A model generated the notes under the pieces. That model was not told the origin of the DNA and made no database searches. It saw nothing but the letters and a program-made list of their open reading frames with translations. 64,000 nt of DNA from Desulfosporosinus sp. (GTDB taxonomy: Bacteria > Bacillota > Desulfitobacteriia > Desulfitobacteriales > Desulfitobacteriaceae), in the NCBI GenBank assembly GCA_020692355.1, contig JAIMKP010000012.1, positions 5,724 to 69,723 of the forward strand, given 5' to 3'. Position numbers and translations under genes: made by a program. Below are positions 13,884-40,293 of this stretch, piece after piece (the first letter of the stretch is position 1; every line of letters starts with the position of its first letter).

Positions 13884-14903
13884 TTACTTACCAGCAATCG
13901 CCTTCTTGGCATCCTCGGCAACCCCAGGGGCCATTTGGCTCAATACTTTGTCGACCGCAGGCTGTGCCGCTTTGACAAAGGCAGCCCGATCAGGCTCGAT
14001 GAGGGTCATCTTGTTATCCGTGGCTTTCTTGATAAATTCCTGGTTCATGGTCGTCGTTTTAGAACGAATATCCTTAATGGCATCATTGATCGCTTGACTC
14101 AACCACTGGCGCTGTTGTTCATTGAGCTTCTTCAAAGTTTTGTCGCTAATAAGCCAGGTTTGGGGAAGCATCACGTGTTTGGTGGCGATGAGGTACTTCT
14201 GATATTCCCACATTTGCCGTCCGGCGATGTTGGATAAGAAGTTCTCCTGTCCGTCCACGGTGCCGGTCTTTAACGCCGTCACAATCTCAGTCGCAGCAAT
14301 CGGCGTCGGAGAAGCTCCAATTTGTTTGAAGACATCAATCCAGCTTTGAATCTGAGGCAGGCGAATCTTAATGCCTTTCATTTCTTCTGGAGTCTTAAAC
14401 GGCTTGTTAGAAGTAAAATAGCGGGGACCAAAGTCGAACATCCCGGCATACTGCACCCCGCCCTTTTCCATGAGGATCTTCTTGATCTTGTCGCCCGTCG
14501 GGCTTGCCATATAGCGATCCATGGAATCCACATCCGGGAACAAAAACGGAATGGCAATCGCGTACATATCTTTATAGTAAAGGTCACCCATGATCGCATT
14601 GTACCCGATATCCAGTTCGCCTAGTTTCAAAAGCTCAAGAGCCTGCTTTTCATCGCCCATTTGACCAGCCATGAAAAGATCAACGTTCATCGTGCCTTTC
14701 GACAGCTCACCGAGCCGTTTCTTAAAGGTTTGCGTGATTTCGTGGTCAATCCCGGAATCTTCATCTGTGGTCGCAAATTTAAGCGTTATTTTGTCGCTCG
14801 TCTTCGTGGCTGCACTGGGAGCAGTGTTGGCCGTGCTACCGCATCCGGCCAAAGCAGTCGTGATTAATATGGTCACTAGAATCAGGGCTATCCATTTTTT
14901 CAT
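13884..14903 (-). CDS. dctP: TRAP transporter substrate-binding lipoprotein
   Basis: Start at MKKWIALILV; lipobox LAGCGS; DctP-family length. Confidence 0.85.
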   Translation of the reverse strand: MKKWIALILVTILITTALAGCGSTANTAPSAATKTSDKITLKFATTDEDSGIDHEITQTFKKRLGELSKGTMNVDLFMAGQMGDEKQALELLKLGELDIGYNAIMGDLYYKDMYAIAIPFLFPDVDSMDRYMASPTGDKIKKILMEKGGVQYAGMFDFGPRYFTSNKPFKTPEEMKGIKIRLPQIQSWIDVFKQIGASPTPIAATEIVTALKTGTVDGQENFLSNIAGRQMWEYQKYLIATKHVMLPQTWLISDKTLKKLNEQQRQWLSQAINDAIKDIRSKTTTMNQEFIKKATDNKMTLIEPDRAAFVKAAQPAVDKVLSQMAPGVAEDAKKAIAGK

Positions 14904-14960
14904 ACAAAATCCTCCCATTTCCTTCCGTTCTTCTTATCGGCTAGGCACCCATGGTTCTTG

Positions 14961-16736: not shown

Positions 16737-16856
16737 TTCATCCAATCGTGAGACTCCCACTTCTACAAGTGGGAGTGGTACCTCGTACTTTGCTTCGGTG
16801 GGGGTAGACTCCCCCACCGAAGTCTCGATGTTCAACTTTAGTTGAACGAGTTCACT
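16737..16856 (-). repeat. copy A of the 120-nt three-hairpin intergenic element
   Basis: Identical to copy B over 120 nt. Lies between the adh stop and the ilvD start. Strand assigned because all copies are co-oriented with the flanking minus-strand genes. Confidence 0.9.
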
Positions 16857-17922
16857 CTGTTTTACGGATGGCCTCCGTGATCATGGCTGAACTGACAGAA
16901 TATGGCATGAACCTCATAAAAGATGTCGGCGAGAGGGCCAGTTGCGCCACGCGTTCCAACTCCTCATCCGTCAGTTTCCTATCTACTCCCAGTTCTGCCA
17001 AACTCGTCGGCAAACCAATGTTGCGATAAAAGGCCTTCAGGTGCTCAATTTCCTCAAGAGGCTGACCATCAATATGCATGAGCGCAAGAATGCCGTACGC
17101 AACTTTGATTCCATGCAACATGGCATGCGTTTCCTCAACCACCGTAAGTCCATCATGTACACCATGAGCCGCACAGGCTCGCGTAGTCTCCATCCCGAAT
17201 CCACCGACAGCCCCTGATGCTATGAAAATAGCGTCGGTGATTTGTTGCACCGCATAGGATGGATCTTTTTTCTCCATATCTTTCAACGCCTGCGAACTGT
17301 ACTGAACCAAGGTATCGAGACAGACCTTAGCCGCAGCTAAGCCCAGTTTTGTGGGCACATGATCTTCATGCCCTCTGGCACACACAATCCCTTCATACCA
17401 CTTGGCCAACGTATCCCCAATACCTGAGAGCATATAGTTGGCCGGAGAATCAGCAATGATCGCTGTATCCACCAAGGTCAACAGGGAATTTTGAGGATGG
17501 TTGATATAATCCACGAACACTCCTTGCGGGGTGTACATAACGGAAATGTGTGTTACGCAAGAACACGTCCCCGCCACGGTGGGAACAGCAACAAACGGCT
17601 TCTTCAAACGGGCAGCCACTGTTTTACTGGCATCAAGGGCCTTTCCTCCACCAACACCCATCACCAGATCAATTTCTTTTGGAGCCAGGCTTTGCAACCG
17701 TTCTACTTCTTCATAAGACGATTCACCTTGAAATGAAGCCACTTCGTACCCTAAGCCATGCTCTAGAAAGCTAGGGACCAGGAGAACGCTCGCCTTGCTC
17801 CAGGCGGTTCGGCCCCCGATAATAAACAGATTCTTTCCATATTTCTGCAGCCATTCGCCTGCCTGCCGTAGAACTCCTGACCCATGAATATAGGCATTTG
17901 CTGAAGCCATCGCTAAATGCAT
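16852..17922 (-). CDS. iron-containing alcohol dehydrogenase family protein (glycerol dehydrogenase-like)
   Basis: 356 aa with GVGGGKALDASK motif and conserved His cluster (HDGLT.. HGIKVAYG). Confidence 0.8.
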   Translation of the reverse strand: MHLAMASANAYIHGSGVLRQAGEWLQKYGKNLFIIGGRTAWSKASVLLVPSFLEHGLGYEVASFQGESSYEEVERLQSLAPKEIDLVMGVGGGKALDASKTVAARLKKPFVAVPTVAGTCSCVTHISVMYTPQGVFVDYINHPQNSLLTLVDTAIIADSPANYMLSGIGDTLAKWYEGIVCARGHEDHVPTKLGLAAAKVCLDTLVQYSSQALKDMEKKDPSYAVQQITDAIFIASGAVGGFGMETTRACAAHGVHDGLTVVEETHAMLHGIKVAYGILALMHIDGQPLEEIEHLKAFYRNIGLPTSLAELGVDRKLTDEELERVAQLALSPTSFMRFMPYSVSSAMITEAIRKTE

Positions 17923-17940: not shown

Positions 17941-18060
17941 TTCATCCAATCGTGAGACTCCCACTTCTACAAGTGGGAGTGGTACCTCGTACTTTGCTTC
18001 GGTGGGGGTAGACTCCCCCACCGAAGTCTCGATGTTCAACTTTAGTTGAACGAGTTCACT
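17941..18060 (-). repeat. copy B of the 120-nt three-hairpin intergenic element
   Basis: Identical to copy A. Lies between the MFS stop and the adh start. Confidence 0.9.
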
Positions 18061-34458: not shown

Positions 34459-34578
34459 TTCACCCTATCGTGAGACTCCCACTTCTACAAGTGGGAGTGG
34501 TACCTCGTACTTTGCTTCGGTGGGGGTAGACTCCCCCACCGAAGTCTCGATGTTCAACTTTAGTTGAACGAGTTCACT
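34459..34578 (-). repeat. copy C of the 120-nt three-hairpin intergenic element
   Basis: Differs from A/B only in the last ~10 nt (ttcaccctatcg vs ttcatccaatcg on the plus strand). Lies between the GntR stop and the 4Fe-4S gene start. Confidence 0.9.
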
Positions 34579-40172: not shown

Positions 40173-40293
40173 TTTATCTAATCGTAAGACTCCCACTTCT
40201 ACAAGTGGGAGTGGGTCCCCCATACTCTGCTTCGGTGGGGGTAGACTCCCCCACCGAAGTCTCGATGTTCAGCTTGAGCTGAACGAGTTCACT
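40173..40293 (-). repeat. copy D (divergent) of the three-hairpin intergenic element
   Basis: All three hairpins are retained and the linker has diverged. The stem base pair A-T is replaced by G-C in the GTTCA(A/G)C hairpin. Confidence 0.85.

Follow-up and report, generated by a model that had tools for sequence, protein, structure and literature searches.

Results

A three-hairpin repeat occurs four times in the window

The window analyzed here is a 64,000-nt stretch of a Desulfosporosinus sp. genome (G000; 3.36-Mb assembly in 101 contigs, 49.9% G+C), corresponding to contig C94, positions 5724 to 69723. It contains four copies of a repeat of ~120 nt, A to D, all on the plus strand. The copies and the parts of copy D are listed below in window coordinates; TAM (target or transposon-adjacent motif) denotes the flanking word TTNAT, TEM (transposon-encoded motif) denotes the terminal word TTCAC, and G001 is a genome of the same genus that was used for comparison.

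16742..16855, plus strand: copy A, subfamily sf1; TAM TTCAT at 16737-16741; empty site in G001
17946..18059, plus strand: copy B, subfamily sf1; TAM TTCAT at 17941-17945; empty site in G001
34464..34577, plus strand: copy C, sf1 variant CCTATCG; 5′ flank TTCAC
40173..40177, plus strand: TAM TTTAT of copy D, directly 5′ of D and outside the mobile unit
40178..40292, plus strand: copy D, a 115-nt mobile unit CTAATCG...GAGTTCAC, subfamily sf2; boundaries taken from at least seven clean empty sites
40189..40212, plus strand: hairpin 1 of D, ACTCCCACTT-CTAC-AAGTGGGAGT; 10 bp with loop CTAC; candidate subterminal hairpin of the left end, from which it lies 11 nt away
40213..40229, plus strand: variable linker of D, GGGTCCCCCATACTCTG, between hairpins 1 and 2
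40230..40259, plus strand: hairpin 2 of D, CTTCGGTGGGGG-TAGACT-CCCCCACCGAAG; 12 bp, loop TAGACT
40267..40284, plus strand: hairpin 3 of D, GTTCAGC (40267-40273)-TTGA-GCTGAAC (40278-40284); 7 bp, loop TTGA; candidate right-end subterminal hairpin
40285..40292, plus strand: GAG spacer (3 nt) and TEM TTCAC, the right boundary of D; the T at 40293 is flank

An earlier note on this DNA had reported that hairpin 3 reads GTTCAAC-TTTA-GTTGAAC in copies A, B, and C and differs in D, and both the raw sequence and an alignment of the four copies bear out the exact letters. The 12-bp and 10-bp stems, said to be unchanged, are so: hairpins 1 and 2 do not vary among the four copies. The linker, which had been described as heavily diverged, differs between D (GGGTCCCCCATACTCTG) and A to C (GGTACCTCGTACTTTG) at about one-third of its positions and by one indel. 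Relative to the sf2 consensus, D has two private substitutions, CCAATCG to CTAATCG and CCCCCGTACT to CCCCCATACT, both outside the stems. As plus-strand DNA, D folds at -32.8 kcal/mol (z = -8.4), and as minus-strand RNA, it folds at -57.7 kcal/mol (z = -6.6); 0 of 200 shuffles folded as well in either case. Neither a promoter nor a terminator is predicted at D, and we rejected both roles on that basis.

Copy number, size classes, and subfamilies in the genome

A profile search of G000 (nhmmer) returned 228 segments that merged into 172 elements, ~96 of which are complete. By length, the merged hits include 48 copies of ~109 to 122 nt, 10 of ~185 nt, ~32 of ~250 to 257 nt, and 3 of ~306 nt. The termini are the same in all size classes (115, 185, 250, and 305 nt), and the element is noncoding, with no open reading frame (ORF) of its own at any length from 115 to 305 nt. 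Long variants retain the two termini as well as the base of hairpin 2, with the loop of hairpin 2 replaced by 65 to 190 nt of extra hairpin modules; in the 306-nt class, the top of hairpin 1 is also replaced by such modules. End fragments are present too, as are internal-deletion derivatives that retain both ends.

The short copies form three young subfamilies:

sf1, 26 copies: the type of copies A to C
sf2, 9 to 10 copies: the type of copy D, with TAAGAC, linker GGGTCCCCCGTACTCTG, and GCTTGAGC in hairpin 3
sf3, 8 to 9 copies: GCGTTTAAGAC, loop CTAT, and GCTTTAGC in hairpin 3

The G-C pair of hairpin 3 is fixed both in sf2 (~10 short copies) and in sf3. The earlier note had presented this pair as a compensatory change from A-T in a divergent copy D. 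The coordinated change is real, but it is not private to D and instead marks the split between subfamilies. D is an ordinary member of sf2, and A-T/G-C is a difference that has become fixed between subfamilies rather than a change that arose in D.

Most copies in G000 are 98 to 100% identical. About 5% of the intergenic regions in this genome hold a copy, and the element lies only tens of bases away from where genes start and stop. Many contigs end 40 to 55 nt into a copy (e.g., C46, C74, C26, C81, C52, C64, C47, and C94:70075-70125). The family is a main cause of fragmentation of the G000 assembly, and several gaps of ~120 N are probably also due to it.

Minimal elements of ~37 nt occur in G000 at C40:5529-5560, C60:34238-34271, and C99:32831-32873. 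They consist of a TAM-like word (TTCAT, TTCAC, or TTGAT), (T)CGAT, hairpin 3, GAG, and TTCAC, and they could be solo right ends or aberrant excision products. An sf2 copy at C20:1393-1513 has GTAG in place of CTAC as the loop of hairpin 1, an inversion that leaves the stem intact and looks like a template switch within the hairpin.

Stems are conserved by compensated changes

We aligned 56 short copies from at least 15 species with MAFFT, without structural information. Stem cells were paired in 96.2% of cases, compared with 87.9% in shuffles and 37 to 48% when the partner was slid. Changes on both sides were seen in 12 of 29 stem pairs, and there were 120 doubly changed cells, compared with 34.9 ± 4.4 in shuffles (0 of 500 reached 120) and 2 to 8 when slid. 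Three of the pairs with double changes lie in hairpin 1 and six lie in hairpin 2. The pattern used to harvest copies fixed the three outer pairs of hairpin 3, making their invariance uninformative, and left free the inner pairs, which were seen as C-G/U-A, A-U/U-A, and G-C/A-U; the stem versions of this hairpin are CAAC/GTTG, CAGC/GCTG, TAGC/GCTA, and TTGC/GCAA. The pair singled out in the earlier note is more commonly G-C (34 copies) than A-U (16) across this alignment, with G-U in 3. Divergent copies within G000 already carry compensated pairs in all three hairpins.

Private substitutions in sf1 to sf3 numbered 5 in stems (58 sites) and 22 outside them (56 sites; P = 8e-4), such that stems take ~4-fold fewer substitutions than nonstem sites within subfamilies. 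Between subfamilies, and also between species, no segment varies more than the linker. These levels of pairing, double change, and substitution uphold the earlier claim that the repeat is a structure under selection and not a decaying one. The larger alignment did not show stem positions changing without compensation at the rate of the linker. Selection most likely acts on the ability to be mobilized rather than on a host function of each copy. Mismatches were G-T in 30 cases and A-C in 21; this difference is not significant, and we therefore discarded wobble pairing as a discriminator of RNA from DNA. Mismatch types single out no one functional strand and do not prove RNA. Although mismatch counts do not decide between RNA and single-stranded DNA (ssDNA), the anatomy of the element favors ssDNA.

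The element inserts 3′ of TTNAT without target duplication

The 5′ flank is TT[T/C/G]AT before CCAATCG in ~110 copies, and a sharp 3′ boundary follows GAGTTCAC(T), with its invariant TTCAC end, in 117 copies. We searched for empty sites by comparing the joined flanks of 33 copies with G001, in which the flanks are ~96% identical. Fourteen loci in G001 lacked the element, at least seven of them cleanly. In the clean empty sites, insertion had occurred exactly between TTNAT and T with no target duplication; for example, G001 has CTTTAT directly joined to TATTGG, and G000 has CTTTAT-element-TATTGG. Both the TAM and the flanking T are already present in the empty sites of G001. Mobility, exact boundaries, a TAM and a TEM, and the lack of target duplication are thus directly supported. 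The D locus of G001 is likewise empty; TTCAT stands at the insertion point, and the spacer has diverged.

Copies A and B are direct repeats that bracket an Fe-alcohol-dehydrogenase gene (16852-17922, minus strand). Both copies are absent from G001, in which the gene between them is present. Since G001 has the gene and two empty sites ~1 kb apart, A and B are two independent insertions and not a composite transposon. These empty sites (G001:C237:13698-13822 and 14742-14912) have TTCAC where G000 has the TAM TTCAT. The TTCAC there and in the flank of copy C may reflect loss through TTCA microhomology between TAM and TEM or the use of TTCAC as a target.

The outer hairpins are subterminal, at distances of 11 nt (left) and 8 nt (right) from the ends of the element; there are no terminal inverted repeats, and hairpins 1 and 3 are dissimilar to each other. 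Base 3 of the TAM covaries with a base just 5′ of hairpin 1, the A/G of T[A/G]AGAC (Fisher P = 7.6e-15); in D, this base is position 40186 (A of TAAGAC). With guide base A, the TAM was TTTAT in 41 copies, TTGAT in 10, and TTCAT in 0; with guide base G, it was TTGAT in 28, TTCAT in 24, and TTTAT in 5. The trend is the same in other species. Because the TAM preexists in empty sites, the association reflects target choice; we infer the pairing geometry between the guide base and the TAM.

The family is widespread and has probably moved horizontally

The family was detected in 10 of the 23 genera represented by 41 related genomes. A pattern scan covering one genome per species yielded 105 loci, with carriers in Desulfosporosinus (many species), Acididesulfobacillus, Desulfotruncus, Peptococcaceae, Herbivorax/Acetivibrio, Clostridium tepidiprofundi, Sporosalibacterium, and several metagenome-assembled genomes. 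Two genomes from another family of the same order, G027 and G031, have copies 97 to 98% identical to sf1 and sf2 (e.g., G031:C426:10300-10421), whereas the orthologous spmB-like gene flanking them is only 66 to 67% identical. This difference points to recent horizontal transfer. The plasmid and phage collections gave no match to the element.

The sign of the strand bias differs between genomes

In G000, the top strand of the element lies on the C-rich rather than the G-rich strand by 121 to 45 and is antisense to most genes. The bias is 23:2 for short copies of sf1, the youngest subfamily, and 28:12 in convergent and divergent spacers; between codirectional genes, 42 of 55 copies are in one orientation relative to the genes. 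Only 3 copies in G000 lie between lagging-strand genes, and replication and transcription are therefore inseparable as causes of its bias. In G017, a near-complete 4.9-Mb chromosome, 14 copies are on the G-rich strand and 3 on the C-rich strand, with the orientation switching at mid-chromosome. The G-rich strand is also favored in the Desulfosporosinus genomes FKB (12:4) and SYSU (8:1), within the Desulfosporosinus loci L099-L168. IS608 and ISDra2 are biased toward the lagging-strand template (PMC5027513). Relative to this rule, the sign is reversed in G000 and as expected in G017 and the two Desulfosporosinus genomes.

Resident transposases and the search for an autonomous partner

G000 has three Y1 TnpA genes and one RAYT-like gene; TnpB genes are also present. 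Its resident tnpA-tnpB IS605 (contig C90, with a second copy on C45) ends in hairpin-TAG-TTCAC (...TAGTTCAC) directly at its boundary, and the orthologue in G003 starts at TTCAT, with the boundary after it. The hairpins of this insertion sequence (IS) read CCCCCG...CGGGGG, the left and right ones having a common basal stem. We rejected it as the parent, since its TAM and TEM are equal to those of the element but its hairpins are different; no sequence similarity between the ends of the two was found beyond the TAM and TEM.

An autonomous element with the ends of the repeat was found neither in G000, nor at the transposase loci of 41 relatives, nor at the 105 loci of other species; the search of G000 and of the 105 loci was for left and right modules more than 300 nt apart. 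No Y1 TnpA with matching ends was found in the sampled genomes. The element-rich genome G004 gave no Y1 hit, and G017 gave only fragments and a RAYT-like gene. An origin from the omega-RNA regions of resident TnpB ISs was also rejected, as local alignments were no better than those of shuffles.

Upstream of an IS200/IS605 tnpA (C31:26490-26760), the sequence TTATCCAAACGTTTGG is similar to the left end of sf3, TTTATCCAAGCGTTTAAG. Judged against the G001 copy, TTATCCAAACGTTTGG falls outside the C31 IS, and we rejected it as an end of that IS. It is possibly a remnant of the element into which the C31 IS inserted.

Discussion

The repeat is likely to be a PATE-like MITE, a nonautonomous element that derives from an IS200/IS605-family insertion sequence and encodes no protein. 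Peel-and-paste transposition of ssDNA by IS200/IS605 elements is recognized by insertion at specific targets with no duplication, by hairpins in subterminal positions, and by a lack of inverted terminal repeats. TTGAT is the TAM of ISDra2. Covariation in three stems, the association of TAM and guide base, Y1 genes resident in the genome, and an IS605 with the same TAM and TEM support this identity. IS605-family elements of Geobacillus (ISGst) use the TAMs TTTAT and TTCAT and the TEM TTCAC (ISGst2), their TAM and TEM differing only at positions 3 and 5, and both IS608 and ISGst recognize the TAM through an internal DNA guide (Meers et al., bioRxiv 10.1101/2023.03.14.532601). In the same study, gene-less relatives described as PATEs were found in Geobacillus stearothermophilus, often encoding omega RNAs (10.1101/2023.03.14.532601). 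PATEs (palindrome-associated transposable elements) were first named in Haloquadratum (PMC3119063) and are also known from Halanaerobium (PMC7290912). The element studied here is a new sequence family of a kind of system that is already known.

Its conserved hairpins are most likely ssDNA signals needed for mobilization by a Y1 transposase. We propose that a Y1 (HUH) transposase acting in trans would cut the top strand twice, once 3′ of the flanking TAM (TTNAT) and once 3′ of the terminal TEM (TTCAC), release a single-stranded circle, and paste it 3′ of another TTNAT in ssDNA, with no target duplication. Hairpin 1 on the left and hairpin 3 on the right would be the subterminal hairpins bound by the enzyme, the base 5′ of hairpin 1 would help to choose the TAM through guide-like pairing, and hairpin 2 would be an internal, expandable stuffer. 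The involvement of any particular transposase, the action of the hairpins as ssDNA, and the role of each hairpin are inferred. Lineages that lose a hairpin would stop spreading, and surviving subfamilies would for that reason differ by compensated pairs, such as the A-T/G-C difference between copies A to C and copy D.

The fold could instead act primarily as RNA, either as an omega-RNA scaffold for TnpB or IscB in trans, with the flank after TTCAC as the guide, or as a stabilizer or processing structure embedded in mRNA in the common orientation antisense to the element. PATEs often encode omega RNAs (Meers et al.), TnpB genes occur in G000, both the covariation and the strong RNA fold are what an RNA would have, and the 42 of 55 copies with a shared orientation between codirectional genes would be cotranscribed. 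Yet no Rfam family reached its gathering score in the window, and at E ≤ 1 there was no meaningful match for six loci (185-nt, 240-nt RAYT-adjacent, 252-nt, and 306-nt variants and the C31 IS); among the families with no covariance-model match in the window or at the six loci are HEARO/IscB omega RNA and the IS605-orfB motifs. The element also does not resemble in sequence the omega-RNA regions of any of the three types of resident TnpB IS, no promoter or terminator is predicted at D, mismatches include no excess of G-U over A-C, and a bias whose sign differs between genomes argues against one fixed transcript-level role. We consider an RNA function unlikely. It is a similarly unlikely idea that the three-hairpin core is a guide-RNA scaffold recruiting a TnpB/IscB-like nuclease, or that an opposite-strand Y1 enzyme acts in some hosts. 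If true, such a scaffold would act in trans at the emptied TTNAT site and provide the family with its own drive for homing or retention, and a Y1 enzyme on the opposite replication strand would explain the genome-specific reversal of the strand bias.

Spread by a single RAYT-like Y1 protein, with the copies as REPIN-like units, rather than by an IS200/IS605 TnpA is, in our judgment, improbable. The RAYT-like ORF of G000 (260 amino acids, C75:2567-3346; Pfam Y1_Tnp E = 1.2e-13; motifs NHVHLLL and YIHQNP) is twice the usual TnpA length, and its stop codon lies 15 nt upstream of a divergent 240-nt copy (C75:2567-3603; L034:1465-2501). About 65 nt upstream of its start codon is an assembly gap of 123 N, typical of a collapsed repeat, and hairpins 1 and 2 are alike in part, the 5′ arm of the former (AGACTCCCAC) being similar to the loop plus 3′ arm of the latter (AGACTCCCCCAC). 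However, this single adjacency may be due to chance, given that ~5% of intergenic regions carry a copy, and none of the RAYT-like homologues in 11 other genomes is flanked by the element. G003 and G004 have many repeats and no RAYT-like homologue, whereas G005, G015, G020, G035, and G039 have homologues and no repeats. The unit, moreover, is 115 to 305 nt long with three different hairpins, compared with 20 to 40 nt for a REP. The 11 homologous loci without an element and the lack of co-occurrence across genomes led us to reject mobilization by RAYT as the main reading. Very improbable, finally, is a neutral origin in which the stems would persist through repair from the partner arm (template switching) or through youth, with no selection on structure. 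The near identity of most G000 copies (98 to 100%) would suit youth, and the CTAC-to-GTAG loop inversion at C20:1393-1513 is a signature of template switching within a hairpin. Youth nonetheless leaves unexplained that, in different orders of Clostridia, hairpin 3 has four different fully paired versions and hairpins 1 and 2 contain multiple compensated pairs, while self-templated repair does not account for the exact boundaries, the conservation of the TAM and TEM, or the association of target and guide.

As a PATE-like family, what had been an unassigned structured repeat becomes a well-delimited mobile-element family that is widespread in Clostridia. No new kind of system is revealed, but the family breaks assemblies, adjoins gene starts and stops, and apparently passes from one bacterial family to another by horizontal transfer. 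For target choice by IS200/IS605 transposases, its TAM, TEM, and guide covariation make up a natural data set, and the genome-dependent reversal of its strand bias bears on the coupling of ssDNA transposition to replication.

Several known systems resemble the element in part. Like the classical MITEs (Correia/NEMIS, RUP, ERIC, and bcr1), it is small, abundant, intergenic, structured, and often cotranscribed; unlike them, it has neither terminal inverted repeats nor target-site duplications of the kind made by DDE enzymes. With REP/BIME/REPIN sequences and their RAYTs (PMC2817692), it shares a high copy number, intergenic location, hairpins, and a related Y1 HUH enzyme, and one RAYT-like gene adjoins a copy in G000. 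The unit here, however, is 3 to 10 times longer, with three distinct hairpins, TAM/TEM boundaries, and no consistent linkage to RAYT. The TAMs TTTAT, TTCAT, and TTGAT, the TEM TTCAC, and the covariation of TAM and guide are also found in ISGst2 and ISGst5 of G. stearothermophilus and ISDra2 of D. radiodurans, which, in contrast to the element, carry tnpA and/or tnpB/iscB and an omega RNA. PATEs belong to another sequence family. The element differs from them in that its left and right hairpins are dissimilar, no cognate autonomous IS was found for it, it has a third, expandable internal hairpin that gives rise to classes from 115 to 305 nt, and its range across Clostridia is very wide. In common with PATEs, it has no ORF, subterminal hairpins, no inverted terminal repeats, many copies per genome, insertion 3′ of a pentanucleotide without duplication, a right end in a TAM-like motif, and presumed mobilization in trans.
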